This document shows, in pieces, positions 40,696 through 64,000 of a stretch of 64,000 bases of DNA. The notes under the pieces were generated by a model. It saw only the letters and a list, made by a program, of their open reading frames with translations. It did no database searches and had not been told where the DNA came from. Position 1 is the stretch's first letter. Every line of letters begins with the position of its first letter. Position numbers and translations under genes: made by a program. The stretch lies in assembly GCA_039024555.1 (NCBI GenBank), contig JBCCQQ010000007.1:84491-148490 (forward strand), given 5' to 3'. This stretch comes from Cyanobacteria bacterium P01_D01_bin.156 (GTDB lineage: Bacteria > Cyanobacteriota > Cyanobacteriia > Phormidesmidales > Phormidesmidaceae).

Positions 40696-40730
40696 GTTCT
40701 ATCTCTTAACTATTCAATCCTATACGTAGT

Positions 40731-43705: not shown

Positions 43706-44052
43706 TATTTGAGTAGTGGACCATCAACTTTCTATTTATGTTTACCAACAGGCATTAATACCCATATGAATGAGCCTTTTTGCTCTAAAGCTATATAAAG
43801 GTGTGTTGACTTTTTATGCTTTCACTAGAGCTGTTAAAAGGATAGGTTTATTAGAGTGAGAAACTTTTCATCTGTTATTGCGTCTAGGGCTGTGGTAGTG
43901 AGATAAATACCGTTTTGACCTAAATAATTTAGATGAAAGTTTAGGACTAGTGTTTTAGTATTTATGCCCGACAATGTTAGCAATAGCTATCTCATGCGTA
44001 CTATTTGAACAATTCAGTGGTTTGTTCTGATCATTATTAAAGGATTAATTGA

Positions 44053-45018: not shown

Positions 45019-45125
45019 TTTTCACGTCTAGTGAAATCTGATTTACAGATAGGGGCAACTCTCTCTTGAGAGTATTTTAGCCTCTAAGTTTAAAGTCTTG
45101 AATGTCGCAGTTTATCGTTTTACTA

Positions 45126-45207
45126 TTGCTGATTTAGGGATGAAACGATCTGCAGAACTTACTATTTACGTGGATTTGGCAGATAAAATCATCCCGAGAA
45201 TCAGCAA
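45126..45207 (+). repeat. Best-preserved copy of the ~83-nt dispersed repeat, with terminal inverted repeats
   Basis: TTGCTGATTTAGGGATGA ... TCATCCCGAGAATCAGCAA imperfect terminal IR with an inner ATCTGC/GCAGAT pair. Confidence 0.75.
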
Positions 45208-45407
45208 CGCCATCGTTTTATTAGCCTGTTTAGAATAGGAACAATATTCTTACTTTGTATTCATAACTGTACATAGGGCATCCTAAGTGTGCACTTTATG
45301 GTGTGTGGTTTTAGTGTAATTGACTGGCCAATGTTGGGCAAAACTGTACTAGCAACTTGTCAGGCTGTCTAAGCCCAAGCTCTAGATTTATAACTTTAAG
45401 GTGAAAC

Positions 45408-46394: not shown

Positions 46395-46694
46395 TGGAAG
46401 TTCAGTATATGGCTGGGAACACGGATACTCTTTAAGGTATCTTAAATATGGATTTTTATATCTCCTGCGGTCATTCCTAATGATATAAGTTCTTGGTATG
46501 ATTCTATCTAGAATCAGTATGCTGGTGGCAAATCTCTAAAGTTGTTTTTCTGTTTTATTAACAACACTTGGTGAATAGATTTTAGGATTTCTTGTTCTAT
46601 CACTCTGAAATCTGTTTCTTTCTTCCCCTGGCAAAGGTTTTATGAAGAATACACACTGAGAATTAGTAGAATCAAAGTTTTTATATCCATCGTT

Positions 46695-48572
46695 ATGTTG
46701 CGAACTATGCCTGTTAATCGTTTTTGGCACTGTTTAACATCTTTGAGAAGATTTGCAAGCGTTGCGGGTGCTATATTTGTTGCAGCTAGTGCCCTAGGCT
46801 GTTCGAAAGATGCTAAGCAAGCTGCTGCTCCAGAGTTTCAAATCCTAGTTGATCAGTTTGGCTATCGTCCTCAAGATCCAAAAGTAGCTGTTGTTCTTGA
46901 GCGGATAGACAGTGAACAGCCCTATGAGCTCAGAAATGCTGAGACTGATGAAGTAATTGATGTTATCGAGCCAATAAGGTGGGCTGGTGGCGCTCTCCAT
47001 TCTCAGTCAGGAGAGCAAGCTTTATGGGTCGAGTTTACGGATTTAGATGAACCAGGGAACTACGTTATCGTTCGTGCAGACGGTGAGACTCGCTCAGCAG
47101 AGTTTGAAGTGAGTAAAGACGTCTACAAAGATGTTTTAATTGCTGCCACCAAAATGTTTTTCTATCAGCGTAGTGGTTATTCGAAACGAGAGCCATTTGC
47201 AGATGCACGGTGGACTGATGGGGCCGCTTACATTGGGCCTGGTCAAGATACCCAGGCTAGGTTTGTAAAGGAGAAAGAAAACCCGCTGTCTGAAAGAGCC
47301 ATGCACGGTGGCTGGTTTGATGCAGGTGATACAAATAAGTATGTTACCTATGCATTACAACCGGTGCATCAGCTGTTGAGTGCCTATAGTCAGAATCCTA
47401 AAATTTGGACAGATGACTTTAACATTCCTGAGTCAGGTAATGGTATTCCTGATTTGTTAGATGAGCTTAAATTTGAGTTGGATTGGCTCATCCGGATGCA
47501 AGATGACGATGGTGGCGCATTCATTAAACTCGGGAATATAGATTTCGATCCCCCTAGTCCAATTCCCAGTAAGGATACTCGTCCTCGCTATTATGGGCCG
47601 AAATGTTCATCTTCTACTATTGCGATCGCAAGTATGTTTGCCCATGCTGCAGTAGAAATGCAAGATATTCCCGAGCTAGAGAATTACGCTGCTGAATTGA
47701 CATCACGGGCTAGGTCAGCTTGGAACTGGTTTCAAAGCAATCCAGTTGAGACAGACTGTGATGATGGCGAAATTAAAGCAGGGGATGCAGACATGACTGC
47801 TGATGCCCAGATGGGAACAACTATTAGTGCAGCAGTCTATCTTTTTGCCGCAACAGGCGATCCTCAATACTCAAAGTATGTTGTCGAAAACTTGAAACTT
47901 GCCCAACCTTATCGAGATGGTCCTTGGTCTCGTTACGATCCATGGCAAGGAGATGCGCTTATATTCTATTCTCAGCTGCCTAATGCCGATGATGCCTTAA
48001 AAGAAAAGATTCTTACGGACTTAGAAGATAAGCTACTGGCATATCATCCAGAAGCCTATGGTAACGATGATTCATTGGATCCCTTTCGCTCCTACATGCC
48101 TGATGAACAATATCATTGGGGTAGTAACATGACAAAAGCGAACTATGGGAACATGAACTACGACCCTGTAATGCTAGGTATACATGAAGCAGAAGGCCCA
48201 GCATATGCTGAACGCGCTCTAGGGGCCATTAACTATTTCCATGGTGTAAATCCGTTAGGAACCGTATTCCTAACCAATATGTATGAGTACGGTGCTGAAA
48301 ACTCAGCTGATGAAATGTACCATCAATGGTTTGGGCAGGGTGAGTTCAAAAACGCCCGTACTTCCAAGAGAGGTCCAGCTCCCGGTTTCTTTATGGGTGG
48401 TCCTAACAAAAATTACTCTGGAGATGCAAGCATAGCATCTGGCCCCCCTATGAAGGCATACGTGAAAAATGTTGAGCCCAATGTCCCAACTTACGAAATT
48501 ATAGAACCTGCAATTTATTATCAGTCAGCTTATATCAAACTGCTATCAAAATTTGTCACTGCAGATGATTAA
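46695..48572 (+). CDS. Glycoside hydrolase family 9 with an N-terminal Ig-like (CelD_N) domain; probable lipoprotein
   Basis: Motifs VDQFGYRP..PKVAV, FFYQRSG, GGWFDAGD (catalytic base) and YEIIEPAIYYQSA (catalytic acid); N-terminal ...SALGC. Confidence 0.9.
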   Translation: MLRTMPVNRFWHCLTSLRRFASVAGAIFVAASALGCSKDAKQAAAPEFQILVDQFGYRPQDPKVAVVLERIDSEQPYELRNAETDEVIDVIEPIRWAGGALHSQSGEQALWVEFTDLDEPGNYVIVRADGETRSAEFEVSKDVYKDVLIAATKMFFYQRSGYSKREPFADARWTDGAAYIGPGQDTQARFVKEKENPLSERAMHGGWFDAGDTNKYVTYALQPVHQLLSAYSQNPKIWTDDFNIPESGNGIPDLLDELKFELDWLIRMQDDDGGAFIKLGNIDFDPPSPIPSKDTRPRYYGPKCSSSTIAIASMFAHAAVEMQDIPELENYAAELTSRARSAWNWFQSNPVETDCDDGEIKAGDADMTADAQMGTTISAAVYLFAATGDPQYSKYVVENLKLAQPYRDGPWSRYDPWQGDALIFYSQLPNADDALKEKILTDLEDKLLAYHPEAYGNDDSLDPFRSYMPDEQYHWGSNMTKANYGNMNYDPVMLGIHEAEGPAYAERALGAINYFHGVNPLGTVFLTNMYEYGAENSADEMYHQWFGQGEFKNARTSKRGPAPGFFMGGPNKNYSGDASIASGPPMKAYVKNVEPNVPTYEIIEPAIYYQSAYIKLLSKFVTADD

Positions 48573-48666
48573 TGAGTACACAAAACTCTGATAAAAACGT
48601 TGACTAAACTACGTGATTAGCCACATCAGAGTTAATCTTCTTTTAGGAAATACGACATGAGTATAG

Positions 48667-48699
48667 CGAGCTGCTGAAACTATTCAGCAGCTCGTTTTT
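48667..48699 (+). terminator. Intrinsic terminator after the GH9 gene
   Basis: CGAGCTGCTGAA / TTCAGCAGCTCG stem followed by TTTTT. Confidence 0.8.
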
Positions 48700-49107
48700 A
48701 ATAGTTTGTGTGCTTGTAGACTTTGAGTAATGACTATTGACGCTGACTTAGCACGTAAAGCTATGCTTCTTACAAGCATCCTCTTAGAGATTGAGTAATA
48801 GTTATTCTTAGCTAATAGTAATAGAGTATTATCAGTCACTAAAAGTTAAAAATTAGCTGCATCAATGAAAGTTAAATCAAAAATTTCATATGTCTTTAGA
48901 ATAAGAAGTTTTACCCATACAACTTGTTTCTTTGCTAAATCTAATAATTCTATTACTCAGTAATATTATGTATGAGCCCTTATACTAGCTACACTCAGCT
49001 TACGTATATCCTCATGAATTCATATTCATAAATTATGGTTTTCTACCGTATTCTCTTTAATGGGATATGACATTAGTAAAACATAATTTACAAACATCAG
49101 GGCAATC

Positions 49108-50118
49108 ATGATTTGGCTAAATAATGCAAGGATCGTAGCCATTCTTGCCGTAGTGCACTTACATGTGACTGCAGTTGTATTGTCTGGAAACTATGTAGGT
49201 AGTGAATATTGGTGGGTTGGAAATATCTCTAGTACAGTTGTCAGATGGTGTGTCCCTGTTTTTGTAATGATTAGTGGGGCACTTTTATTAGATCCCCAAA
49301 AACAGGAGAGCTCATCAATTTTCTATAAAAAAAGGCTTTCTAAGATTCTTATTCCTATAGGATTTTGGTCAGTATTTTTTTTGTTTTGGACATTTCTCCA
49401 TGGCTTTATAGATGGCATATTACCCAGCAATTTACAGTTACTAAAAAGACTCTTAAAGGGCCTTCCCTACGAGCACCTCTGGTTTCTGTATATGATTTTA
49501 GGAATGTATTTATTCGTTCCTTTTTTTCGGAAGATAATTTCAATTTCTAGTGATCGTGAGATCGTTTTCTTTACAGTCACAACGTTCTTAATCGCTGGTA
49601 TAAACTTTTTTCACACAAGCGTCTCTAATGTAGTGAGGCCTGACTTATTTATAAATTGGTTCCTTTTGTATATTCCATTCTTCTTTAGTGGATATTTGAT
49701 TCAGAAAGATAATCGAAAATTTCCAACATCAGTACTCTGGAGTATATTCCTATTCTCTGCTGCTGCAACTGCAGTTGGGTATTATTACGTTGCATTAGAC
49801 AGTGAATTTTTATCCGATTCGTACTTCCATGGCTATTTGAGTATTACTGTGATACCCATGTCTATCAGTGTGATGTATTTGCTGAAAGAATGGAATATTC
49901 CAGCTTTGAATGAGACTGCAACAAAGAAGATTGCATTACTTACGTTTGGGATTTATCTAGTTCATCCAATTGTGATAGAAGTCCTTAACAAAACTGATTA
50001 CCTACGAGCAGTACATCCAGCCATTGCTATTCCTACTTCAACCGCCATTGTCTTTACTGTCTCTCTGGGAATATCCTGGGCACTCTATAAAATCCCCTAC
50101 TTAAATAGAACAATATAA
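49108..50118 (+). CDS. Acyltransferase_3 family O-acetyltransferase (WecH/YiaH-like)
   Basis: Motifs R.VAILAVV.LH, RWCVPVFVMISGALLL, HLWFLY and TFGIYLVH. Confidence 0.9.
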   Translation: MIWLNNARIVAILAVVHLHVTAVVLSGNYVGSEYWWVGNISSTVVRWCVPVFVMISGALLLDPQKQESSSIFYKKRLSKILIPIGFWSVFFLFWTFLHGFIDGILPSNLQLLKRLLKGLPYEHLWFLYMILGMYLFVPFFRKIISISSDREIVFFTVTTFLIAGINFFHTSVSNVVRPDLFINWFLLYIPFFFSGYLIQKDNRKFPTSVLWSIFLFSAAATAVGYYYVALDSEFLSDSYFHGYLSITVIPMSISVMYLLKEWNIPALNETATKKIALLTFGIYLVHPIVIEVLNKTDYLRAVHPAIAIPTSTAIVFTVSLGISWALYKIPYLNRTI

Positions 50119-50732
50119 GTAGAGACCCCTAATCATGTAAGCCATCGACAGTAGCATTGCTGATTAAGGTTGCTGTACGTATTTTTCGCTAGAAAAATTG
50201 GCGACTATTTAACCATTCAACGGTGTTTCACAGTTGACACAGTGAAGGATTTGGGAACCATACCTGAGCATAAATCGACTATGAAATTAGCATGTCAACT
50301 TTCAAACAATCAATACTTGGGTTCTTACTGATAGTTTCTAAGTCAGCTTAAGATTACAGCCTCTTTTACATCTGACAAGCTGTGCCACCAGACCTCTAAA
50401 TTTATCATTGATAATTTCGAGGGTAGCTCTATCTAGCAATGGTGTATCGATATTTCTCAAATAATGTCATCTCTCAGATGAGCAGTTCTCTAAGTCTTAT
50501 TACTGAAGATGGCATACCCTAAAGGACACTTACAGTCTCCTGAAACAACTTGGGCATTCTAGTGCTTGAGATAGTCGAAACAAAAGAAGAACTTCAGGGA
50601 AATTCTTTACAGGATCTTGATAGCTTTTTGGCAAAACGTATTTTGTACTCATGTAAATATTACCGACTCAACAAAAAATCACCAAATTGAAATTGGGCTG
50701 AAAAATTTTTAGATTTTAGAGCTGTCTAAACT

Positions 50733-52055
50733 ATGGGTATGAATAAACTGAAAGTATTATTAATTATTGAACAGTGTAATCCTGCTTGGAACTCAGTGCC
50801 CCTCGAGGGATATCATCTATATGCAGGCATTAGTCGATTTGTTGATGCCACTCTGGTAACTCATAAGCGCAATCAGGAAGAGTTAGAAAAGATACATCCT
50901 GATGCAGATATTCTTTACCTTGAAAACAGCGCTGCTATTAAGCAGTTGGAACAGCTGGGTGAGCGTTTAAGCTTGTATAAGGGGCAAATAATTTGGCCAC
51001 TTCGCAATGCGTTTACATACCCGGTTTATTGGGGATTTAATCGTACTGTTTATAATCGATTTAAGGAGTCAATTGCTCGTGGCGAGTACGATATTGTCCA
51101 TGCGATTACTCCCATGATGCCACGCTATCCTGTAAAAACAGTTAAAGCATGCAGCCAAACTCCCTTTATTCTTGGCCCAGTTAATGGAGGTGTGCCTTTC
51201 CCTGACGGCTTTAAAGAAGTAGGGCGTAAAGAATACTCGTACTTTAATTTTCTTCGTGCCGTAGGCCGAGCAATTATCCCCGGATATCATGCCACCTATA
51301 AAAAGGCAAATTATATTCTGGCAGGCTCAACCTATACGCTTGGCTTAATTAGAAAACTTTTTCCTAAAACTCGTGACAATCAAATAGAACTTTTTTATGA
51401 GAATGGAATTACGAATTCCTTTGTGAGAACTAATGAAGACTTTAACCAAAATAAAAAAGTAAAAGAAGCATCAGCGCACAATAAGGTTAAGTTGTTGTAT
51501 GTAGGGCGTCTTGTTCCTTACAAGGGAGCAGATATGATTTTAGATGCTCTTGATAAACTGGATACATCTGTCAAGGAAAAGATACATCTAACGATAGTCG
51601 GTAAAGGTTCTGAGGAGCAAAAATTAGAAGATCAGGTGAAGCATCTTCATCTTGAGCAGTATGTGCATTTCACAGGCTATGTTGAGCCGTGGCAAACATT
51701 AGAGTACTATCGGAATTCGGATATTTTCTGTTTTCCGTCGGTTCGTGAATTTGGTGGAGCAGTCGTTTTAGAAGCCATGGCCAATGCGTTGCCCTGTATC
51801 GTAGTTGATAATGGTGGTATCGGCGAGTACGTAACAGAGAAGACAGGCTTTAAGATTAGTCCAATTTCTAGAGAATTTGTAGTGCAGAAGATGGCTATTT
51901 ATATTGCTCAGCTGGTTGATGACCATATCATGCGTCATGATATGGCGTATGAGTCACTACAACGTGCTAGAGAATTTACTTGGGATGTAAAAACTCGGAA
52001 AATTGTTGAAGATATTTATCCAAAGGTTTTATCCAAAGTGCCTACTCTTGTCTAG
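50733..52055 (+). CDS. Glycosyltransferase family 4
   Basis: Motifs LLYVGRLVPYKG, DIFCFPSVREFGGAVVLEAMA and GGIGEYV. Confidence 0.92.
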   Translation: MGMNKLKVLLIIEQCNPAWNSVPLEGYHLYAGISRFVDATLVTHKRNQEELEKIHPDADILYLENSAAIKQLEQLGERLSLYKGQIIWPLRNAFTYPVYWGFNRTVYNRFKESIARGEYDIVHAITPMMPRYPVKTVKACSQTPFILGPVNGGVPFPDGFKEVGRKEYSYFNFLRAVGRAIIPGYHATYKKANYILAGSTYTLGLIRKLFPKTRDNQIELFYENGITNSFVRTNEDFNQNKKVKEASAHNKVKLLYVGRLVPYKGADMILDALDKLDTSVKEKIHLTIVGKGSEEQKLEDQVKHLHLEQYVHFTGYVEPWQTLEYYRNSDIFCFPSVREFGGAVVLEAMANALPCIVVDNGGIGEYVTEKTGFKISPISREFVVQKMAIYIAQLVDDHIMRHDMAYESLQRAREFTWDVKTRKIVEDIYPKVLSKVPTLV

Positions 52056-52090
52056 GTATTCGTTCTGGGATAATTTGTTTTTTATCTGTC

Positions 52091-52136
52091 AAGCCAATAA
52101 GCCATGACCTAAATTTAGGTCATGGCTTATTGGCTT
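52091..52136. terminator. 46-bp perfect palindrome between convergent genes (bidirectional terminator or cruciform candidate)
   Basis: AAGCCAATAAGCCATGACCTAAA followed directly by TTTAGGTCATGGCTTATTGGCTT. Confidence 0.7.
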
Positions 52137-52214
52137 AAATCTGTTTTTATATGAAAACGTGATATCACTCAGCTCACTTTAAGTTCAAAACTTTCTCAGT
52201 ATAAAGTGAAGGCA

Positions 52215-52940
52215 TTAATGCTGTGATGCCATGAGTTCAGAAACTGTTTTAAATTGATAGCCTTCTTGTTGTAACTGTTGCAACGCTAATCTGGTTGCAG
52301 TTACAGTTTGGGAGCGATCCGGATCGCCATCGTACATGCCATCATGCATAAGTACAATCGAGCCTGGCTTTACATTACTGACAATAGAATGAGCAATTTT
52401 TTCTGGGCCAGGATTTTCAAAATCTTTTGGATCTACATCCCAGAGAACATTAATCTTTTGTTGACGAGCAAGTTCCCATGGTAATCTGATCCGCTTAAGA
52501 CCATAGGGAGCACGAAAGTGAATAGTTGACTGAACACCCAAATCAGACAGTAAATTATCGGTTTTCTGAATTTCTGAACGAATAGTACTGAGATTTTGAT
52601 TTATCAACTGCTTATGGGAATATGAATGATTTCCTAATTCATGCCCTTCAGCAATCATACGTCGAGTTATTTCAAGATTATCCTGGATATGTTCTCCAAC
52701 AGCAAAAAATGTTGCTTTTGCATCAAACTCATTAAGTACATCAAGCAAGCTATTCGTATATGGAGCATTTGGTCCATCATCATAGGTTAATGCGACTACT
52801 TTCTCTTTGGTATTCACCCGAGAAATCATTTTTCCAAATATTTGGAACTTATATGATGTTGACAACCATTTTAGAGAATAGCGAATTAAAAATATTAATA
52901 ATGTACTAGAAATCGCTAAAAGCGCTATAGCAAGGTTCAT
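52215..52940 (-). CDS. Polysaccharide deacetylase (CE4/NodB homology) with an N-terminal membrane anchor
   Basis: Motifs TYDDGP, HSYSH, FRAPYG, DPKDF and IVLMHD. Confidence 0.93.
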   Translation of the reverse strand: MNLAIALLAISSTLLIFLIRYSLKWLSTSYKFQIFGKMISRVNTKEKVVALTYDDGPNAPYTNSLLDVLNEFDAKATFFAVGEHIQDNLEITRRMIAEGHELGNHSYSHKQLINQNLSTIRSEIQKTDNLLSDLGVQSTIHFRAPYGLKRIRLPWELARQQKINVLWDVDPKDFENPGPEKIAHSIVSNVKPGSIVLMHDGMYDGDPDRSQTVTATRLALQQLQQEGYQFKTVSELMASQH

Positions 52941-53513
52941 ATAGAAAGAAAATCAGACTGTTCTTATTAGCAATTATAGACAAATAAGCATCTAATGGAC
53001 TAACCAAAACAGTATGAATTACCAATTTATTATGCACCTACTTCTTTGATTTACAAAAAACAAAGATATACCTTTATAAGCACTTATAAAGCCTTGAATT
53101 CTAAATATAAGAATGCGTGAAACTATTTTTAGACCTATCCTAACTAATGAGATACATGAAATTCATTAGCATTCCTAAATTGAAATAATTTTAAATTTAA
53201 GAAAAATTAATCAGTTACAATTAGAACAACTACTGGCGAGAAAAAGTTTGAATTGGGCATACTTTTTAGTAAATGCACATCAAACATTCTTTAAGAGTTC
53301 AGTGTAATAAACAGTAAACCAGATTTTCAATTAGGTTTCTCAGTTCCTTGGATAGGATGAAGACTTCAACCCGGAATTAGAGAGGCTTCTTTAAAGTATC
53401 TTCAAAGAAATAACGCTAACTGTTTTTTTTTATTGTTAGTGCTACTAATGGAAAACTGTTTGTATGTCTTATATTTCTTCTAACTATACCCCTACTGTTA
53501 TCTCTTGATTTTT

Positions 53514-55199
53514 ATGAAAAGAGCTCCTGTTATTGGTATTGGTTTAGATGCAGCTGATCCAACTCTACTAGAACCATGGATGGATCAAGGGCTGCTACCT
53601 AACTTAGATCGTCTTCGTAGGGAAGGCACTTATGGTCGTCTGGCCAATACTGTCCCTTACGCTGGTGATAACGAAGTAGAGTTTTCTTCCACTGAACCAT
53701 CGTGGGTTATCTTTTCTACTGGGTGTTACCCCAGTAAAACAGGATTCTGGGATACGATAGCGTTTTCCCCAGAAGACTACAGTGTTATATGCGACGAAGT
53801 TGATAGCGGTTACGACTATAAGGGTTTTTCTCCCTTCTATGCACTAGGAGACAATTACCGAGTAGCCGCATTTGATATTCCAGTTTCAGCGCTTTGTGAC
53901 CAAGTTAAGGGACTACAAATTTTAGGTTGGGGTGGACATTTTCCATTTGTACCCAGTCACTCTAATCCCCAAGAACTGTTCGGAGAAATTGTTGAAAAGT
54001 ATGGCCGTAACCCAGTGCTACATAATGACAATGGCCGCTGGTGGGATGCCAAATATGTAAATTGGATACAGACTGCGCTCCAAAAGAGTATTGAAAAAAG
54101 AGTAGCTGTTTGTCAAGATTTGCTTCGGCGTGACTCATGGGATTTGTTTTTGACTACGTTTGGCGATACTCACTCGGCAGGGCATGATCTTTATGATCAA
54201 AGTCAACCAGATCATCTATTGCATACGTATCGACGTGGTCAGACTGATCCACTGTTGGCCATTTACAAAAAAGTTGATTGGGCTATTGGTGAAATTCTAT
54301 CGGCAGCGCCAGAAGATGCGACGGTGTTTTGCTATTCAGTTCATGGAATAGGCGCTAACCTGACTGACTTATTGAGCATGTTTTTCCTTGGAGAAATCAT
54401 GTATCGATTTAACTTTCCAGATAGACCTGGCATAGCCCAAGGAGAGCTGGGTAAGGTTCCGTCTTCACCTATCAAAAATCCTATTCGACGTTCCTGGGCA
54501 GATGAAGTTTGGCGTAAAGTTCATGAACCTAATCCTATTAAAAAGCTAATTAATACCTGGGCCCCTAAGAAATGGATGAGTGCGAATAAGTATGGGTTGT
54601 CGTCGCCACGGTTACTACAATCGACTCAACCACAATTGGGGTGGATGCCTGGAATGGCCTATTCCTCGCTATGGCCAGAAATGAAAGCTTTTGCTGTACC
54701 GGCTTTTGCCGACGGTCATATTCGAATTAATTTACAGGGACGAGAGCGAGATGGAAACGTATTGCCTGATGAATATGATGGGTTGTGTCAGGAGATTACG
54801 GCTATGCTGCATGGGTTGACGGATGGTCGTAGTGGCCAACCATTAGTGAAGCAAGTTGTACGTACCCGTCACAACGCATTGGATGATGATCCAACATTAC
54901 CGGATGCAGATTTGGTTGTTGTTTGGAATGAAATCCCTACGGATGTTGTGGATAGTCCTACTCTTGGGCGTATCGGGCCAGTTACCTTCAATCGTCCTGG
55001 CGGTCACCGATCTCGTGGTTTCTTTGTGGGTAAGGGTAAAGGAATCCCAGCTGGCGAAGTCCTTGAGAATGGTCGAGTTGTGGATATAGCACCCACATTC
55101 TTATCGTCTTTAGGTGCACCTATCCCAGAATATTATGATGGCTGCTCATTGTTTTCTTCCTTTTCATCAGAAAAAGCGGAATCGATTTCCATAGCGTAA
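53514..55199 (+). CDS. Alkaline-phosphatase-superfamily enzyme (type I phosphodiesterase / nucleotide pyrophosphatase-like)
   Basis: Motifs IGIGLDAAD, STEPSW...TG.YP.K.G, THSAGH, IRINLQGRE, GGHR..G and VDIAPT. Confidence 0.85.
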   Translation: MKRAPVIGIGLDAADPTLLEPWMDQGLLPNLDRLRREGTYGRLANTVPYAGDNEVEFSSTEPSWVIFSTGCYPSKTGFWDTIAFSPEDYSVICDEVDSGYDYKGFSPFYALGDNYRVAAFDIPVSALCDQVKGLQILGWGGHFPFVPSHSNPQELFGEIVEKYGRNPVLHNDNGRWWDAKYVNWIQTALQKSIEKRVAVCQDLLRRDSWDLFLTTFGDTHSAGHDLYDQSQPDHLLHTYRRGQTDPLLAIYKKVDWAIGEILSAAPEDATVFCYSVHGIGANLTDLLSMFFLGEIMYRFNFPDRPGIAQGELGKVPSSPIKNPIRRSWADEVWRKVHEPNPIKKLINTWAPKKWMSANKYGLSSPRLLQSTQPQLGWMPGMAYSSLWPEMKAFAVPAFADGHIRINLQGRERDGNVLPDEYDGLCQEITAMLHGLTDGRSGQPLVKQVVRTRHNALDDDPTLPDADLVVVWNEIPTDVVDSPTLGRIGPVTFNRPGGHRSRGFFVGKGKGIPAGEVLENGRVVDIAPTFLSSLGAPIPEYYDGCSLFSSFSSEKAESISIA

Positions 55200-55471
55200 T
55201 TTTGACAGGGGTTGTTTACTACTTAGCGATTTTAACAATCCCTTACCGTTTTGATTTCTGCGCTTAGCTATATATCACTGCTCCATGATTATGATCTCGC
55301 TAGAGAAGCTTTAAAGATTTAATAAACTTATGAAGGTTTTAACGGTTTTCTGCAACCTTGTGCCGAAGTTACTTACTTAAAGTAACTTCTTTAGTGAGGG
55401 CTTTTAACACACCCCTATGACGAACTTTTATTAGAAATTAGGGCAAGACTAACTTATTTTCCAGATGCATT

Positions 55472-56461
55472 ATGAATCCAGATATATCGGTTATCATCCC
55501 TGCCTATAACACTGGAACCTATATTAAGAAAGCCATTAACTCGGTTTTGTCTCAAACCTTTGAGAACTTTGAGATAATTGTCGTTGATGATGCTTCAACG
55601 GATGACACAGTCCAAGTTATTAAAACGATAAAAGATAACCGTCTAAAATTAATTTGCCAAAAATACAACCAAGGTGCAGGCGCATCACGCAATCGTGCTC
55701 TTAAGGAGGCGGTAGGAGATTGGATTGCTGTGCTAGATTCCGATGATTGGTATGCACCAGAGAGACTTGAAAAACTTTTAGAATTTGCACAGAAACATCA
55801 AGCAGATATAGTAGCCGATGATTTTTATATCATCGAAGATGGTGAAGCTGTCCCTAGGACAACGATGCTTGAGTATCATAATTCATCAATTAAAGATGTC
55901 CTAAGAATTACCCCAACCTTCTTTGTACTTTCTGATATTGATGGTAGAAAAGGGTTAGAGCTAGGCTTTAGTAAGCCACTCTTTCGTAGAAGTTTCTTGA
56001 TAGAGAATAACATTTTTTACAAGCCAGAAATTACAGTTTCACAGGATTTCTGGCTTGATTTAGACTGTCTTGTTAGAGATGCAAAATTCTTTCTGTTGCC
56101 AGAGCCTTATTACTACTATCTTTCAAGGGAAGGGGCTTTGACGACTAGCACTAACACAATTAAAAGACTCGATGAAGAGTGCGCGGCTGTTCACAAGTTC
56201 TGCCGAGATGAAGCTAATTATTTGAGAGAAAATGTAAAACTTGCTAAGGCATTAAATTTAAAGCTTAGGGAAACTCAAAAGCTTAGGGATTATCATAAAG
56301 TTGTTGACTGCTTAAAACAGAGAAAACTCTTGAAAGCTGGCTTAGAGTCTTTGCAAAGTCCCCTGTTTTATCAAAAAGTTTTATCGGAAATCCCTAAGGT
56401 GATATCTAGATATTTTAAGGCAATTTTTCTGAAAACTAAGATATACAAAAAGTTTAGCTGA
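55472..56461 (+). CDS. Glycosyltransferase family 2, ExoO-like
   Basis: Motifs ISVIIPAYN, VVDDASTD, SRNRAL, AVLDSDDW and LGFSKPLFRRSFL. Confidence 0.88.
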   Translation: MNPDISVIIPAYNTGTYIKKAINSVLSQTFENFEIIVVDDASTDDTVQVIKTIKDNRLKLICQKYNQGAGASRNRALKEAVGDWIAVLDSDDWYAPERLEKLLEFAQKHQADIVADDFYIIEDGEAVPRTTMLEYHNSSIKDVLRITPTFFVLSDIDGRKGLELGFSKPLFRRSFLIENNIFYKPEITVSQDFWLDLDCLVRDAKFFLLPEPYYYYLSREGALTTSTNTIKRLDEECAAVHKFCRDEANYLRENVKLAKALNLKLRETQKLRDYHKVVDCLKQRKLLKAGLESLQSPLFYQKVLSEIPKVISRYFKAIFLKTKIYKKFS

Positions 56462-56553
56462 ATATCTGCAGCGAGTAGGCAGCGCTCAATGCTCAGCTAC
56501 AAGGAGTATTTCTATTGAGACCTTTATTAATTTTCTATTTTTGTTGCTATTAG

Positions 56554-57198
56554 CTAATTTAAAGCTTTTTTGGCAATTTCTGCTTGCTGCTTAATAGCTG
56601 CAGCTTTACGCTCGCTGTGGCGGTCGGTGAGTTCATCTACTTGATCTCGTAACAGCAGGGTAAAACGATAAAGTTCTTCCATCACATCTACGATGCGATC
56701 GCGATAGGCGGATTCTTTCATAGTGCCGTCTTCGTGGAACTCTTGATAAGCCTTGGCTACCGAAGATTGGTTGGGGATGGTAAACATTCGCATCCAACGG
56801 CCCAGAAGTCGCATCGTATTGACTGCATTAAACGATTGCGAACCGCCAGACACCTGCATTACCGCTAGGGTGCGTCCCTGGGTGGGGCGAATGGCTCCCA
56901 TACTCAGGGGAATCCAGTCGATCTGGGTTTTCATTAGCCCAGAAATGTTGCCGTGGAGTTCTGGGCTGGACCATACCTGCCCCTCGGACCACAAGGACAG
57001 CTCCCGTAATTCTTGGACCTTGGGATGGGTATCGGGTTCAGCTCCGTGGAGAGGTAATCCCCGAGGATTAAAAAATTTGACCTCTGCTCCAAAGCCTTCG
57101 ATGATGCCAGCGGCTTCTTCAGCGAGTAGTCGACTGTAGGAGCGTTCGCGGAGAGAGCCGTAGAGAAACAGAATGCGGGGTTTGTGGTCAAAGGCCAT
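56554..57198 (-). CDS. arsH: Arsenical resistance NADPH-dependent FMN reductase ArsH
   Basis: Motifs [45 protein letters not shown] and GRWMRM. Confidence 0.96.
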
Positions 57199-57271
57199 GG
57201 GTGAGGAACAGGATATGGACTAGTGAGAAATCTGTAAGAAATAACGTTAACACATAGAGGATTAGCCGAGG

Positions 57272-57892
57272 CTAGCCAGCCGTTAGAGAACTAGCCATGA
57301 TGGAGCATTGGTAACGGAGTTGTTGGTCGCATTGTTTCAGCAGTTCCAGAATGGCCTCTTCCCCTAACGTAGCCAGCTGGGGAGTAATGCTGTAGTAGCG
57401 CTGTAGATGCTCCCGATAAATGGATTTGTATTCCGCTTCTGTGAGATCTGGCTTAACCGGGACGATAAAGTCGTAATCTTCGATGGTTTTGTTTTTACCG
57501 TTGCAATTACCTTCGGTGAGATCCACTCGATAGTTTTCGTAGGCCAGAAAACAATGGACTTGAGGAATAAAGTCAAGGCCATGGGATTGGAGGATGGCAC
57601 TTACTCCGGTAACAATGTCGTCATTGAGGCGATAAAAGCCCAAATGTTTTGAGACAGCTAGGTCATGGGCTTGAGCTAAGCGCGCGATCGCACCATGTTT
57701 AGTAGTGCAGTTACCATAGCCCTCCTCAAATAAGATGACTGAATCCTCACTACTAGAATTCGCACCATAGGGTAGCGCCTTGACCCAAGTACAGGCCGCA
57801 TGAAACGTAGTTAGCTCCCGCCGGAGACATTGTTCAGAGATTGGGTCCTGAGGCAACAGATCAACATTGGGTAAAACACTAATCGAATGCAC
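57272..57892 (-). CDS. Uncharacterised protein with a transglutaminase/papain-like Cys-His-Asp pattern
   Basis: LPYG...GNCTTKH...PQVHCFL...RVDLT. Co-directional between arsP and arsH. Confidence 0.7.
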   Translation of the reverse strand: MHSISVLPNVDLLPQDPISEQCLRRELTTFHAACTWVKALPYGANSSSEDSVILFEEGYGNCTTKHGAIARLAQAHDLAVSKHLGFYRLNDDIVTGVSAILQSHGLDFIPQVHCFLAYENYRVDLTEGNCNGKNKTIEDYDFIVPVKPDLTEAEYKSIYREHLQRYYSITPQLATLGEEAILELLKQCDQQLRYQCSIMASSLTAG

Positions 57893-57992
57893 AATACGTT
57901 CTCCAATTTTTGGTTAACAACAAGACAATGAAAGAAACAGAGTGACCAGACAAGGCGAGATGAACTGCCTGGGGCTTGAGAGTTCGGAATTT

Positions 57993-58035
57993 TGAAGTCG
58001 GAGTTCGGAATTCTAACTTCCGAACTCCGACTTCA
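57993..58035. repeat. Hairpin built from short GAGTTCGGAA-type repeats between arsP and the downstream orf
   Basis: TGAAGTCGGAGTTCGGAA / TTCCGAACTCCGACTTCA 18-bp stem; an additional GAGTTCGGAATT copy at 57980. Confidence 0.7.
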
Positions 58036-58061
58036 CCCCCAGCCGAGAGATGCCAGTCAGG

Positions 58062-59102
58062 TCAAAACAAAACGCTGTAGCTAAGGCCAGCTATGACTGA
58101 ACCTACAAAAGCAAACCCTAGATAGGCCAGAAATACCGGGCGACGGGCCAGGGCAAAAACAGCAATCATTGCCGGAATGCTAGTGGCTCCTCCAGCGAGC
58201 AAGAAGGCCATGCCTGCACCAGGGGCCATGCCCTGATTAACTAAACCTTCCACCAAAGGCAGGGCGGCGTAGCCGTTTAGATAGGCCGGAATTCCCACTA
58301 GGGATGCTCCCACCACAGACCCGACACCACCATTACCGGCAACAGTTTGAATCCAGGCATTGGGTACGTATACCAGCATTAAACTTTCCAGTACAAACGC
58401 TAGAGCCAGCCACTTACCCAGGAACCAAGCGTTGGTGCGCGCACCTTTCCAAAACTTCTGTCGGCGTTCCGCTTCGGGCCAGAATTTCCAAACTACCGGC
58501 TTAGGATTACGCACGCGGCTACCGCCACAGCCACCGTTGCCCACCCCTTCGTGAAGAGGATTAACAAACGCAGCCGTAGAGATGCCAGCATTCATCAGGG
58601 CCAGGGTACCAAAGCCTCCTAGTAAACCAATGGCAACCGTGGCCACAGTTTTAGCGATGGCAAACTGCAGTCCCAGGGTGCCCAAGGTCAAAATAAACAT
58701 GGACGGGTCCATGAGCGGAGAAGAGAGCCAAAATGCCATAACCGCCGAAACCGGCACCCCCATGGTCAGCAGTGCCGCAATCAATGGAATGACACCACAG
58801 GAACAAAACGGAGAAAACGCCCCGAATACCGAAGCCAACACAATCATCACTGAGATGCGTCCCTGGAAAACCTTGGCAATCAGGTTATCCGCACCACTAG
58901 CTTGGGCATAGGCCGCAATCCCGATGGACAGAAGCAAAAAAGGAGCCACGTGCACCAGGCTCTTAACCGTAAAGCCTAGGCTGTCAGACAACTGAGGTGG
59001 CACTAGAATGGCCACCCCTATAAAGATGAGTACGAGGGTTAGAAAAACCTTATCTAGCTGTTGAACACTGCGATTAAAGCGATTGAATACGGTTGATGTC
59101 AT
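58062..59102 (-). CDS. arsP: ArsP/DUF318 permease (organoarsenical efflux family)
   Basis: Motifs FSPFCSCGVIPL, AFWLSSP, GIPAYLN and GMAPGAGMAFLLAG; located next to arsR and arsH. Confidence 0.8.
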   Translation of the reverse strand: MTSTVFNRFNRSVQQLDKVFLTLVLIFIGVAILVPPQLSDSLGFTVKSLVHVAPFLLLSIGIAAYAQASGADNLIAKVFQGRISVMIVLASVFGAFSPFCSCGVIPLIAALLTMGVPVSAVMAFWLSSPLMDPSMFILTLGTLGLQFAIAKTVATVAIGLLGGFGTLALMNAGISTAAFVNPLHEGVGNGGCGGSRVRNPKPVVWKFWPEAERRQKFWKGARTNAWFLGKWLALAFVLESLMLVYVPNAWIQTVAGNGGVGSVVGASLVGIPAYLNGYAALPLVEGLVNQGMAPGAGMAFLLAGGATSIPAMIAVFALARRPVFLAYLGFAFVGSVIAGLSYSVLF

Positions 59103-59118
59103 GGCAGAAGTCCTTTGG

Positions 59119-59140
59119 TAATTCGAGAAATATCAAAATA
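59119..59140 (-). promoter_or_regulatory. Putative ArsR operator upstream of arsP
   Basis: TAATTCGAG-AAAT-ATCAAAATA, the same 9-4-9 architecture as the box at the arsR start. Confidence 0.6.
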
Positions 59141-59184
59141 AACAGTAGCTCGATTCTGGTTGCATGATGTTTGGGCCTTAAAAA

Positions 59185-59562
59185 TTAATCGGGACAATCA
59201 GTGCAGGGTAGCGGTGTTTCGATATCTGATAGGTCTAGAGTTTCAGGGTTAACAACACGATTGCGGGTGCAACATTCCTCAAATAGAAAATCAATCAGAT
59301 GTTTGAGGGTATCGGACTGGACGCTGTACCAAATCCACTGACGATCCTTCTCTGCCCGGACGATGCCTACCTGCCGCAGCTTATCCAAATGGTGGGACAG
59401 AGTTGGAGCCGTAATCCCCAGCTCTCGCTGAATTTCCCCCGCCGGTAGACCTTTGGGGTAGGCGGATAGCAGCAACCGAACGATATTCAGTCGAGAAGGC
59501 TGCCCGAGGGCTGCAAATGTAGCCGCAATTTCTTCAACGGAGCTAGACGTGTGATTTGACAT
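59185..59562 (-). CDS. arsR: ArsR/SmtB repressor with a C-terminal Cys-Cys site and a CxxC tail
   Basis: FAALGQPSRLNIVRLL, GEI...TLSHHL..L wHTH, EECC and PCTDCPD. Confidence 0.92.
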   Translation of the reverse strand: MSNHTSSSVEEIAATFAALGQPSRLNIVRLLLSAYPKGLPAGEIQRELGITAPTLSHHLDKLRQVGIVRAEKDRQWIWYSVQSDTLKHLIDFLFEECCTRNRVVNPETLDLSDIETPLPCTDCPD

Positions 59563-60197: not shown

Positions 60198-60728
60198 TTA
60201 TGAAGAGCTTTCGGAAGATGGTGTTTGGGGCGGAGTGAGCTTACATTCGATGGCGACTTTGACGCTGCATTCGACAGAACTGGAGGCAATATAGGGAATT
60301 TGAGCTGTAGTATCCAGGCCAATGCCAAATTCGAGCACCACTTTTTCAATTTCAACTTCGGTGAGGGCGGTGTCGCGGATATCTTTTATCAGGTGGGTGG
60401 TATAGGCTTTGACCAGGGTGCCCACCCGCTGTGCAGGGGTTGGTTTAGGTGGGGTAGTGGGTTGATTGGCAGAGCCATCAGTACGTGAAGTGCCGTGGCG
60501 GTTGGGGTATTGCCAGCCTTTGGATACACGGCCAGATTCTTCAACTTCATCATCGTTATCAGACTCTGACGGTTCTGAGGTAGGGGACGGTGGGATTATG
60601 TCGTCTTCGAGGTCGTTGCTATCTGGGGTTTCTATGGCCTGGGTTAGTTCGCTGGTGTCGATGTCTTCGTTGGACTGGACGTAGATGATGGTGTCGTCGT
60701 CGAGGCGGAAGGGTTTGACTTTGCCCAT
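60198..60728 (-). CDS. CU044_2847/Trypco1-like protein
   Basis: N-terminal LDDDTIIYVQ, an acidic linker, and C-terminal IEKVVLEFGIGL....IPYIASSSVECSVKVAIEC. Confidence 0.8.
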   Translation of the reverse strand: MGKVKPFRLDDDTIIYVQSNEDIDTSELTQAIETPDSNDLEDDIIPPSPTSEPSESDNDDEVEESGRVSKGWQYPNRHGTSRTDGSANQPTTPPKPTPAQRVGTLVKAYTTHLIKDIRDTALTEVEIEKVVLEFGIGLDTTAQIPYIASSSVECSVKVAIECKLTPPQTPSSESSS

Positions 60729-60856
60729 GGTGTGTTTCTCAGGAGTTCAGGCTCATTTTGGCTCAAGTTTAGTATTTCTTTGATTACCTTTAGCAGGGAC
60801 TCAAATTCAAGTTGATTTGCACTATATTAGGTCAGTGCTAATGTGGCTGGCTGCCT

Positions 60857-63800
60857 ATGATTCGTGATGCGTTGGTCGTTGGGATTAACAATTATGAATA
60901 TGAACATTTGTCGCAACTTCAGGCTCCGGCTAATGATGCGGAGTTGATTGCCCAGCGATTAGAGGCACAGGGGTTTTGGCAGGTAAAACGATTGCCAGAG
61001 GCAACGACGAAAAGTGGAAAGCAGCGGGTCAGCAGTAAAAAGATGCTGACGGTGCAGGAATTAGAAGATGCCATTGAGGATCTGTTTTATCCCAATACCA
61101 AGCGCAATAAGCCGGATGCGGCACTGCTATATTTCTCGGGGCATGGGTTACGGAAGGAAGGGCGTAGGCGGTCGGAAGGATTTTTGGCAGCTAGTGATGT
61201 GACTCCAGAGGGTGGCATTTGGGGACTGTCTTTGAAGTGGCTGCGGGAGTTGTTGCAAGATAGTCCGATTGCGTCTCAGGTGGTGTGGCTAGACTGTTGC
61301 CATAGTGGTGAGCTACTGAATTTTGAGGAGGGCAATCCGGGGGAGCAGGGATTGGCGAGAGATCGTTGTTTTATAGCGGCATCGCAGGATCATAAGCTGG
61401 CCTATGAGGGCGATGGCGATGTGCCTTACAGTGACCTGACACGGGTGCTGTGGCAGGGGCTGGATGCTGCGAATGGGGACGTTACGAGCTTTGACCTGCA
61501 GCGGTTTGTGGACGATGCATTTAGTCAGCAGACTCAGCGGCAACAGCAGCCTTTGTTTCAAACATCTGGTGGCAGTATCTTGCTGGTGCCGGGGGTGAAA
61601 AAGCCACAACAGGTAGTTGCTCAGGTTATCCGAGAAGAGAACCCTTACCAAGGATTAAATGCGTTTACGCAAAAGACGGCTGAGTTTTTCTTTGGTCGGG
61701 AAGTAGCGGCGCAAGAAATTTTGCAAAGGCTAAGTCAGTCGCCACTTGTGCCGGTGATTGGGGTGTCGGGTAGCGGGAAATCTTCGGTGGTGCGGGCAGG
61801 GGTGATGGCTTGGTTAGGCACATCGGCACGGTGGACGGTGCTGCCTGCCATTAAACCTGGGGACTCGCCCATTGATCCGGTGAATGAGATTAGTCGGGCG
61901 TTGACACAGGTCTGTGCCCAGGATAGTCAGAAGCCTCAGGTAGCCTTGGCGGTGGGTAATGGAAAACTTTCTGAAGCAGTGGAGCTTCTGCAAGGGGAAG
62001 AGAATCTGTTGCTAGTAGTGGATCAGTTTGAAGAGATTTTCACCGTATGCCCTCCGGAACAGGAAGCTGAGCGAAAGAGGTTTTTACAGCTATTGGTAGA
62101 TCTGTCGCAACAGCCGGACTCGCGGTTGCGGGTGTTGACCACGATGCGGGCGGACTTTTTTGAACAATGTTTGACTTACCGAGAGTTTGGCAAGGTGATC
62201 AAACGACAGCAGGTGTTGCTGTTGCCCATGGATGATGATGAGCTGCAGGCGGCCATAGCGGAACCGGCAGCAGTGCAGGGCTATGGCTTTGAAGAGCGTC
62301 TGTTGGAACTGATTTTAGAAGATGTGGCAGCAGAGAGTAACTGTTTGCCGCTGTTGCAGTTCGCCCTGACCCAGCTATGGGAACAGCGGGATCAAGAGCG
62401 TCATGTGCTAACGGAAACAGCCTATCGAAAAATGGGGCGGTTGATGGGGGCGCTAAACACCCATGCAGAATCGATTTATGCGGGCACCATTGCTGACCTG
62501 AAACTGCGGCTACGCTCAGATGAGCAGCGAGAGTGGGCTAGACGGATTTGCTTGAAGTTGGTACGCACGGGAACAGCTGCTAAAGATACCCGACAACGAC
62601 AACCGCTGTCGCTGGTGCTGGGGTTAGGACAGTCGCCCCAGGAGCAACAAGTCATTAAAGAGGTGATCCAGGTATTGGTAAACGGGCGGCTTTTGGTACA
62701 GGGTTCGGCTGTGGCTATGGCGGCTGAGACTGCACCGGAATCTTCAGCAATGGTTCAAGATAGTGGTAAGTCCGACGATGTTTGGATTGACCTGACCCAT
62801 GAAGCTTTGCTAGAGGGTTGGCAGCGCTTTGCTGAGGAGTGGCGAAAGGAAAATCGGGACTTGCGGCGGCTGGTGCAGCGGGTGGAAGATAGCGAAAAAG
62901 AATGGCAACAAAAGGGCAAGCAAGAAGGGTATCTGTTGCAAGGGGGCCTACTGGCGGAAGTGCGGAAGCAGTGGAACATGTTACAGGTAGAGTTGGGCCA
63001 GCATATGCAGCGATATTGCCAGCAAAGCGAGCAGCGAGAACAGGACCAGGTAGCCTTTCTGGAGCGGGCACTAACGGAGTCAAGGCTTCGGGAAGAGGCG
63101 ATGCAAATTCTAAACTTGACAAAAGCACGGCCCCACCCTGACCGGGCTGTACGGGCAATTCGAGCGGTGGGGACTAGCGAGCAAAAGCTAGATGGACGCA
63201 TTCTCACATCGGTACAGAACAATCTACCGACTGTGATTAATCGAATCCGTGAGTGTGGGTGTCTCCAGGGACATCTAACTTATGTTAGGTCGGTGGCCTT
63301 TAGCCCCGATGGCAAGACTGTGGTCAGTGGCAGTGATGACAAAACGATTCGACTATGGGACCTGAACGGAACGCCCATCGGTGAGCCCTTCGAGGGGCAT
63401 TCGGCTTCTATTTTGTCGGTGGCCTTTAGCCCCGATGGCAAGACTGTGGTCAGTGGCAGTTCTGATAAAACGATTCGACTGTGGGACTTGAACGGCACAC
63501 CCATCGGTGAGCCCTTCGAGGGGCATTCGGCTTATGTTAGGTCGGTGGCCTTTAGCCCCGATGGCAAGACTGTGGTCAGTGGCAGTTCTGATAAAACGAT
63601 TCGACTGTGGGACCTGAACGGAACGCCCATCGGTGAGCCCTTCGAGGGGCATTCGGATTATGTTAGGTCGGTGGCCTTTAGCCCCGATGGCAAGACCGTG
63701 GTCAGTGGCAGTGATGACAAAACAATTCGACTGTGGGACTTGAACGGCACACCCATCGGTGAGCCCTTTAAGGGGCATTCAGCTTCTGTTTGGTCGGTGA

Positions 63801-64000
63801 CCTTGAGTCCCGATGGCAAGACTGTGGTCAGTGGTAGTTCTGACAAAACGATTCGACTGTGGGACCTGAACGGAACTCTCATCGGTGAGCCCTTTAAGGG
63901 GCATTCGACTTATGTTTTGTCGGTGGCCTTTAGCCCCGATGGCAAGACTGTGGTCAGTGGCAGTTCTGATAAAACGATTCGACTGTGGGACCTGAACGGA
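60857..64000 (+). CDS. Caspase (peptidase C14) - STAND ATPase (nSTAND1-like) - WD40 repeat protein; 3'-truncated and not in the ORF track
   Basis: In-frame TAA at 60839, then ATG at 60857, open for 1048 codons to the window end. Motifs MIRDALVVGINNY, LLYFSGHG (His 61142), WLDCCHSG (Cys 61295), NPYQGL.AF...FFGRE, Walker A GVSGSGKS (61760), Walker B LLLVVDQFEE, MRADF, LPLLQFAL and HEALL, then GH...WD repeats. Confidence 0.92.
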   Translation, partial: MIRDALVVGINNYEYEHLSQLQAPANDAELIAQRLEAQGFWQVKRLPEATTKSGKQRVSSKKMLTVQELEDAIEDLFYPNTKRNKPDAALLYFSGHGLRKEGRRRSEGFLAASDVTPEGGIWGLSLKWLRELLQDSPIASQVVWLDCCHSGELLNFEEGNPGEQGLARDRCFIAASQDHKLAYEGDGDVPYSDLTRVLWQGLDAANGDVTSFDLQRFVDDAFSQQTQRQQQPLFQTSGGSILLVPGVKKPQQVVAQVIREENPYQGLNAFTQKTAEFFFGREVAAQEILQRLSQSPLVPVIGVSGSGKSSVVRAGVMAWLGTSARWTVLPAIKPGDSPIDPVNEISRALTQVCAQDSQKPQVALAVGNGKLSEAVELLQGEENLLLVVDQFEEIFTVCPPEQEAERKRFLQLLVDLSQQPDSRLRVLTTMRADFFEQCLTYREFGKVIKRQQVLLLPMDDDELQAAIAEPAAVQGYGFEERLLELILEDVAAESNCLPLLQFALTQLWEQRDQERHVLTETAYRKMGRLMGALNTHAESIYAGTIADLKLRLRSDEQREWARRICLKLVRTGTAAKDTRQRQPLSLVLGLGQSPQEQQVIKEVIQVLVNGRLLVQGSAVAMAAETAPESSAMVQDSGKSDDVWIDLTHEALLEGWQRFAEEWRKENRDLRRLVQRVEDSEKEWQQKGKQEGYLLQGGLLAEVRKQWNMLQVELGQHMQRYCQQSEQREQDQVAFLERALTESRLREEAMQILNLTKARPHPDRAVRAIRAVGTSEQKLDGRILTSVQNNLPTVINRIRECGCLQGHLTYVRSVAFSPDGKTVVSGSDDKTIRLWDLNGTPIGEPFEGHSASILSVAFSPDGKTVVSGSSDKTIRLWDLNGTPIGEPFEGHSAYVRSVAFSPDGKTVVSGSSDKTIRLWDLNGTPIGEPFEGHSDYVRSVAFSPDGKTVVSGSDDKTIRLWDLNGTPIGEPFKGHSASVWSVTLSPDGKTVVSGSSDKTIRLWDLNGTLIGEPFKGHSTYVLSVAFSPDGKTVVSGSSDKTIRLWDLNG
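63263..64000 (+). repeat. Tandem 126-nt (42-aa) near-identical WD40 repeats, at least 6 units
   Basis: Units start at 63263, 63389, 63515, 63641, 63767 and 63893. Consensus FEGHSxxVxSVAFSPDGKTVVSGSxDKTIRLWDLNGTPIGEP. Confidence 0.97.

Follow-up and report, generated by a model that had tools for sequence, protein, structure and literature searches.

A candidate caspase substrate beside a cyanobacterial caspase-nSTAND1-WD40 receptor gene: a conserved head-to-head pair with Trypco1

Caspases are numerous in cyanobacteria and have long been linked to regulated cell death, and no natural substrate for them is named in the literature passages accessible to us. What such a protease cuts is the question raised by a caspase-nSTAND1-WD40 receptor gene that lies at the end of a 64,000-nucleotide stretch of Cyanobacteria bacterium P01_D01_bin.156 (hereafter the window; genome G000, contig JBCCQQ010000007.1, or C7). 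A first-pass annotation had called the protease substrate unknown; the point can now be narrowed, as the gene diverging from the receptor encodes a Trypco1 protein of the Pepco group and the two stand in a conserved head-to-head pair, the cleavage itself being proposed from sequence patterns. It is in this Trypco1 neighbour, rather than in the receptor itself, that the interest of the locus lies. Our preferred reading, to which we give moderate confidence, is that the receptor senses a trigger, its caspase cuts Trypco1 at K70-G71 and the freed pore kills the infected cell. Publications are cited below for their accessible parts.

The pairing was surveyed across cyanobacteria, with loci collected from both the caspase and the Trypco1 side (most but not all of the matches listed were covered) and with adjacency taken as within 800 bp. 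Local profiles yielded 187 Trypco1 open reading frames (ORFs), 176 after the removal of 11 duplicates, all counts being among the matches listed, and 8 of 8 spot checks against Pfam confirmed the protease labels. A caspase adjoins 41 of the 176 genes, 40 of them head-to-head and one in tandem, a trypsin adjoins 69, all on the same strand and none head-to-head, and neither protease adjoins 66, 10 of which lie near a sequence edge. The caspase-linked proteins form a clade of their own: in a FastTree phylogeny of 174 rows (2 short rows dropped) and 108 columns the partner type changes once, with support 89, while shuffled partner labels give a mean of about 33 changes and 0 of 500 shuffles are as low as one. 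Inside the caspase side, the partner caspases split in step with the two Trypco1 subclades, into clades of 21 and 20 rows (one change, 100), with Mantel rho values of 0.61 and 0.35 within them, and the sensors (WD40, pentapeptide repeats or FGE-sulfatase) swap on a constant caspase-nSTAND1 core and Trypco1 pair. Across 39 head-to-head pairs the spacer measures 36-701 bp, with a median of 91 bp, and the window pair, with 128 bp, falls within this range; no promoter was placed in it by a consensus scan, and the pair spacers show no shared motif, the best 6-mers occurring in 10 of 37. At one locus (L048:1226-1417) a truncated Trypco1 of 63 residues stands head-to-head with an intact caspase-STAND gene.

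Concerning the Trypco1 protein, both PF19493 and NF041216 exceed their cut-offs. Its AlphaFold2 (AF2) monomer, with a predicted local distance difference test (pLDDT) of 65, opens with a short N-terminal hairpin (residues 3-19); residues 20-97 form a loop that is largely disordered, a helix spans 98-120 and a long hairpin 125-164, and a C-terminal tail of 12 residues follows. The strands of the long hairpin alternate hydrophobic and polar faces. Evans et al. (bioRxiv 10.1101/2025.11.14.688446) count both Trypco1 and Trypco2 as Pepco, a group whose partners in actinobacteria and cyanobacteria are, by their account, serine or cysteine proteases, and describe SsPepco as a barrel pore that is activated when trypsin-Avs4 removes its tail after Ile97. 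By analogy, the window Trypco1 is predicted to be a latent pore-former. A fold search with the model gave no match at E <= 0.001 and a second one a best Z of 4.8, a profile search of Protein Data Bank sequences returned nothing significant, and a single-protein query of viral contigs found no Trypco1 relative.

The loop of Trypco1 varies from 10 to 90 residues in length, yet one motif is kept in it. In the window clade this is K-G (55 of 65 proteins; shuffle mean 7.5, maximum 16), which is found in 0 of 21 proteins of the sister clade and in 3 of 68 trypsin partners. All 21 sister-clade proteins show instead Tyr or Met followed by Gly, Arg, Lys or Asp (mean 9.2, maximum 15), a pattern present in 11 of the 65 members of the K-G clade (mean 11.6). 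Trypsin partners carry Val or Ile plus a small residue (67 of 68; mean 47.2, maximum 57), which is near chance in both caspase-side clades and fits the Ile-specific cuts reported for the trypsin-like proteases of such modules (bioRxiv 10.1101/2025.11.14.688446). An out-of-sample set of 102 further homologues (105 less 3 duplicates), all of the sister clade, has the Y/M motif in 88 (mean 27.9, maximum 41). After the last strand, which ends in C-x-F/L, caspase-side proteins have tails with a median of 4 residues, and of at most 6 in 67 of 86. Since the loop motif is conserved, its key residue tracks the protease clade and the tails are mostly short, K70-G71 is predicted to be the scissile bond of the window protein.

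The caspase side offers a possible counterpart. Residue 184 is Glu in 14, Gln in 6 and Ser in 1 of the K-G partners, and Ala in 12, a gap in 6 and Val in 2 of the Y/M partners, so that Glu or Gln occurs in 20 of 21 K-type and in 0 of 20 Y-type proteins. In a weak alignment the residue falls opposite the Asp in the QTSAD loop of metacaspases, and it appears to lie in the region equivalent to the S1 anchor of MALT1, E500 (PMC4626109). Together with Asp27 and Asp146, Glu184 makes up the acidic candidate S1 positions, from which we infer a basic P1 preference. A charge complementarity between caspase loop and motif (rho -0.55) reflects the two clades and is not counted as evidence.

Put together, the proposed course of events is as follows. 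The trigger, most likely a phage protein, would bind between the WD40 propellers, upon which the nSTAND1 domains would oligomerise, as known STAND receptors do on their ligands. The caspases, thus activated, would cut Trypco1 in the disordered loop at K70-G71, a site read from residue patterns only. The resulting fragment would start just before the amphipathic helix, as the tested Pepco starts natively, and may form or open a barrel pore in the manner of the latter; the cell would die and the filament be spared.

The receptor itself is an ordinary-looking, real caspase-nSTAND1-WD40 architecture, of a kind previously described in cyanobacteria. The first-pass annotation had reported one frame of at least 1048 codons with a caspase dyad, Walker motifs and WD40 repeats, and this is borne out: positions 60857-64000 of the forward strand hold a single stop-free frame of 1048 codons, the Hidden Markov Model check for Peptidase_C14, nSTAND1 and WD40 matches all three families, and the catalytic motifs are all intact (Table 1). 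The model of the protease domain has MALT1 (E 6.4e-11, TM 0.69) and metacaspases as its nearest folds, and the nSTAND1 domain, with both Walker motifs, sits between effector and repeat sensor, as in nSTAND1-type receptors. The effector-NTPase-sensor reading of the first pass was therefore right, though the architecture is known rather than new (PMC13581612, PMC8283722). That the ORF track missed the gene is likewise explained, because C7 ends at base 64000, inside a repeat array and before any stop, and a stop-to-stop caller skips such a frame. The closest named relatives of both the receptor and the Trypco1 gene are Leptothoe records. Of the PADLOC check, only generic matches came back (PADLOC-DB 2.0.0, library of 2023: PDLC02919 for the repeat region and PDLC02987 for the caspase, E up to 0.001), and no Avs model of that library matched the receptor.

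Table 1. Positions of the Trypco1-receptor pair and of its parts in the window.
Feature	Positions	Strand	Details
Trypco1 / CU044_2847 gene	60198..60728	-	176 residues; Pfam PF19493 E 4.4e-9; NCBIfam NF041216
Amphipathic helix and long beta-hairpin, predicted barrel stave	60237..60437	-	from model secondary structure, strand alternation and hydrophobic moments
Loop motif R67-V-S-K70-G71	60516..60530	-	predicted scissile bond K70-G71
Head-to-head spacer, presumed shared promoter region	60729..60856	.	128 bp
Caspase-nSTAND1-WD40 gene, 5' part	60857..64000	+	1048 codons, open at contig end; likely 3' end G000:C21:3-686
Peptidase C14 (caspase-like) domain	60869..61564	+	residues 5-236; Pfam PF00656 E 1.7e-19; AF2 model pLDDT 91.9
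His96, in FSGHG at 93	61142..61144	+	catalytic dyad
Cys148, in LDCCHSG at 145	61298..61300	+	catalytic dyad
nSTAND1 NTPase	61643..62926	+	residues 263-690; Pfam PF20703 E 2.6e-105, 353.6 bits (cut-off 27.1)
Walker A, GVSGSGKSS at 302	61760..61786	+	Lys308
Walker B, LLLVVDQFEE at 384	62006..62035	+	
WD40 repeats, 42 residues, highly similar	63266..64000	+	six in window, last cut by contig end; six Pfam stretches, E 2.6e-81

Several observations weigh against cleavage of Trypco1 by the caspase, or against the pore that would follow from it. Adjacency is far from universal: of 40 related caspase loci that have 800 bp or more of upstream sequence (4 loci with less than 800 bp and the duplicates having been dropped), 20 have no adjacent Trypco1, and 46 of the 86 caspase-side Trypco1 genes have no adjacent protease. 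Co-divergence occurs between linked genes even without interaction, and the K/Y split counts as one event. The motif patterns were chosen after the sequences had been inspected; 17 of 68 trypsin partners show the Y/M pattern too, more than the 14 reached at most by shuffling, and the K-G pattern has no out-of-sample proteins, as all 102 fall in the other clade. At least 7 of these, with a Y-type core and unassigned partners, read R-E-S-K-G where their relatives read R-E-S-Y-G, variants which support one homologous site but blur the link between clade and residue. One close orthologue has K-V in place of K-G, the window tail of 12 residues departs from the mostly short ones, and Asp27 and Asp146 are common to both caspase clades. 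A complex prediction for two caspase domains with Trypco1, at a score of 0.30 (mark 0.32), speaks neither for nor against the interaction. As to the pore, SsPepco resembles Trypco2 by eye and is without the N-terminal hairpin and loop, and the profile comparison of Trypco1 with Trypco2, with 7 Trypco2 sequences only, is weak (probability 1-17%, E 0.04-0.0014), so the pore role is borrowed from a distant relative. A circular permutation between the two families gives a non-significant match of 9 columns (E 0.19), a hint only. Seven aligned cyanobacterial Trypco2 proteins (L218-L227 loci) end in a hairpin followed by Thr or Val and a small residue, an ending that resembles the loop motif of trypsin-linked Trypco1 and goes with the same non-significant hint.

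Some of these points would also be accommodated if Trypco1 were a bait-loop inhibitor or threshold-setter and the caspase acted by cutting other host or phage proteins, which we consider rather improbable. An inhibitor bait, as in serpins, is a protease-matched residue in an exposed loop, and the Trypco1 motif is thus equally what a bait would show. The absence of a Trypco1 neighbour from half of the related caspase loci suits this explanation too, as do the unpaired K-type copies that 20 of the genus's 22 genomes carry (in two of them seen only at a contig edge), a spread not usual in a toxic effector, and the effector-less caspase that protects against phage in the accessible text of the Evans et al. 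preprint. However, those who tested Pepco place Trypco1 in the same group, and deletion of SsPepco abolished toxicity in their hands; the long hairpin, with its alternating hydrophobic and polar faces, also speaks against a bait.

The same cleavage chemistry could, alternatively, serve stress or developmental death in the filament in place of phage defence. In the genus the unpaired copies come close to being core genes, 18 of the 46 have one neighbour gene in common, PADLOC gave only its generic caspase and repeat matches, and no defence genes were recognised among the scanned window neighbours (arsH, permease, arsR and SnoaL), all of which would suit such a role. We nevertheless regard it as unlikely, given that sensor swapping, patchy orthologues and variable WD40 surface positions are typical of arms-race receptors, and that those tested protease-effector modules with a known trigger respond, in the accessible reports, to phage proteins.

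Another possibility keeps Trypco1 as substrate and pore and has it activated by removal of the C-terminal tail, as SsPepco is, this being the sole mechanism measured in the Pepco group in the sources at hand. The window copy and 3 of its 4 closest paired relatives do have tails of 12-21 residues rich in Pro, Ser, Thr and Gln, but one close relative has a tail of 4, most caspase-side tails are of the short kind counted above, the window tail lacks the conserved Ile after which SsPepco is cut, and the conserved, protease-tracking motif sits in the loop; tail removal is therefore quite unlikely here, and loop cleavage at K70-G71 is the mode that we retain.

The 3' end of the receptor gene needs separate treatment. 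C7 ends within a tandem array whose 126-bp unit is present in 5.7 copies at 90% matches, its last 77 bases recur earlier in the same array, and the eight complete WD40 units have a mean nucleotide identity of 88.5%; such near-identical arrays break short-read assemblies (PMC12222747). The first-pass annotation had asked for the sequence to be extended past 64000, and no contig from two runs spans or extends the array, but a likely in-frame continuation with a cap is present: contig C21 starts with repeats 85-90% identical to those of C7, where other repeat contigs reach about 65-76% over long stretches, and its open frame 3-686 starts in frame and adds about five further blades, a cap nearly identical to that of the complete 1474-residue homologue L014, and a stop. 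Most likely, G000:C21:3-686 is thus the end of the receptor gene, by a join that is deduced rather than sequenced. The join rests on repeat identity and the cap because an empty-site test did not succeed: of 21 congeners, 0 have the gene that follows the C21 cap; the C21 sequence gave no match to 6 congener SnoaL loci either. Joined in this way, the protein would have at least 11 blades, which probably form two propellers. That the gene is broken just past the window and the locus decaying, as the missing stop and the unspanned array might suggest, is very improbable given the in-frame C21 with its matching repeats and L014-like cap, the homologue of genome G004 that is likewise split over two contigs, and the intact catalytic motifs.

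The same genome holds related loci which bear on how far the proposal may be extended. A second head-to-head caspase-Trypco1 pair, of the Y-G type, lies at G000:C35:1-3825 (L002); its WD40 array breaks at the contig end and probably continues on G000:C88:1-1241 (L009), and its caspase linker has a tandem duplication of about 20 residues. An unpaired K-G Trypco1 occurs at G000:C10:60586-60936 (L026), with a helix-turn-helix gene on one side and fur on the other, a location that is conserved in the genus; caspases without a neighbour, such as G000:C36:58655-61249, may have it as their shared substrate. A trypsin-type Trypco1 with the loop R-S-V-S is found at G000:C40:2513-2800 (L027), upstream of a trypsin-NB-ARC gene. 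One genome thus provides a built-in specificity control: C7 and C35 carry pairs of the K-G and the Y-G type, C40 has the trypsin pair with V-S, and on C10 the K-G copy stands unpaired.

From this a wider hypothesis may be formulated, which we put forward tentatively and regard as doubtful in its full extent: that cyanobacteria possess a death pathway dedicated to caspase and Trypco1, that a distinct Trypco1 clade, licensed by cleavage within its loop, is the pore-forming executioner of many cyanobacterial caspase-nSTAND1 receptors, that the P1 residue of its loop (Lys, Tyr/Met, or Val/Ile for trypsin partners) is a swappable address, and that receptors without a neighbour share, in the conserved unpaired copy, an executioner that acts in trans. 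Trypco1 would be a candidate substrate for cyanobacterial caspases with an exact predicted bond. If the cleavage is true, the Pepco pore mechanism is extended from tail removal to internal-loop cleavage, and if the shared executioner is, bacteria would have a counterpart to the convergence of several inflammasomes on a single gasdermin.

The first-pass annotation had further described the receptor region as GC-richer (guanine plus cytosine) than its flanks and free of HIP1 sites, and had taken this as a sign of mobility. Its GC of 53.2% is indeed high: the genome averages 47.1%, and the region ranks among the highest 1.5% of 2034 equal tiles. The 57-60 kb region upstream, however, is similarly at 50-51%, and the contrast is exaggerated by a low-GC (36-43%) glycosyltransferase-like cluster at about 40000-56500, which includes a GH9 glycoside hydrolase at 46695-48572. 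The absence of HIP1 was discarded as evidence, since 25.7% of the same tiles have none. By eye, no integrase or transposase is present in the ORF lists on either side of the pair. Evidence for mobility is hence weak; gain or loss of the pair is plausible, because close orthologues (82-87% identity) occur patchily, in only 2 of 21 congeners, and a mobile element was not shown. The SnoaL gene, found in 6 congeners, has a caspase-Trypco1 pair beside it in one and other genes in five. An arsenic-resistance-like operon (arsR, permease, arsH) occupies 56554-59562 on the reverse strand and includes a gene of 206 residues at 57272-57892 without Pfam or NCBIfam match.

Elsewhere in the genome, three further genes are worth recording. 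G000:C105:6075-7760 (L005), a gene for 561 residues without Pfam or NCBIfam match, converges on a WD40-type STAND-like gene, with an integrase-like gene close by; to the eye alone, the strands of its product, rich in serine and glycine, look like those of pore-forming folds. G000:C112:4834-9413 (L006) fuses a caspase to iHD-CE and an Hsp90-like region and is followed by a wHTH-HSP90-associated gene, and G000:C10:77402-82453 (L007) encodes 1683 residues in which the WD40 repeats are N-terminal and a KAP NTPase comes after them, so that the usual order of the sensor is inverted.

Concerning known systems, nSTAND1 was named by Kaur et al. 2021 (PMC8195603), caspase-bearing Apaf-1-like STANDs of cyanobacteria are named in PMC13581612, and WD40 is the commonest accessory domain of cyanobacterial orthocaspases (PMC8283722). 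The window receptor shares with these Apaf-1-like proteins the N-terminal caspase, STAND NTPase and WD40 sensor; the accessible text of both papers, including the searchable supplements of the former, makes no mention of Pepco or Trypco and gives no substrate. A preprint on diversity-generating retroelements (10.1101/2023.09.22.558884) records trypsin- or caspase-like genes in the vicinity of Trypco1. In the literature searched, whose coverage leaves out most subscription papers, no description was found of the unpaired copies, the loop motif or the head-to-head caspase clade, and the figures or supplement of Evans et al. may show cyanobacterial caspase pairs.

The VMAP ternary systems share the Pfam family PF19493 with the window, and Trypco1 was defined there as trypsin-linked by Kaur et al. 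2020 (PMC7159879). They associate Trypco1 with trypsin and caspases with an alpha/beta-hydrolase, whereas the window clade joins Trypco1 to a caspase, and no MoxR or vWA gene of the ternary layout was recognised among the neighbours of the pair. The EACC1-caspase system (Kaur et al. 2020; Evans et al. 2025) is alike, in its accessible description, in having a caspase with a variable sensor and an effector freed by an internal cut that removes the N-terminal part, but its effector is of a different family, and the window caspase reaches 87.4 bits where NF047832 has a cut-off of 140.

The fungal HNWD receptors carry HET and NACHT domains where the window receptor carries caspase and nSTAND1, and the likeness was tested at the repeats alone. 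With the repeats numbered so that GH falls at 8-9, presumably the same offset, 14 of the 42 positions vary among the eight complete WD40 units, and these include 5 of the 7 diversifying HNWD positions (10, 11, 12, 14, 30, 32, 39). In the fungal genes het-d and het-e, which have near-identical 126-bp WD40 repeats as well, those seven positions are under diversifying selection (PMC12222747), and variation in the two sets of repeats would fall at matching surface positions.

In the Pepco-protease module, finally, a small Pepco/Trypco gene stands beside a protease-STAND receptor and encodes a helix and a long amphipathic hairpin, as it does here. SsPepco starts with its helix, whereas the window Trypco1 has an additional N-terminal hairpin and loop; the SsPepco gene lies upstream on the same strand, whereas the window pair and 40 of 41 caspase pairs are head-to-head; and SsPepco is cut in its tail by a trypsin-like domain, whereas the window partner is a caspase, with a loop motif and a clade of mostly short tails. 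The tested set of Evans et al. (Table S1, as accessible) contains no Trypco1-type protein and no caspase-Pepco pair. The window system would thus work like a Pepco module from which it departs in two features of the tested member, gene orientation and tail cleavage, and with which its homology is weakly recovered.

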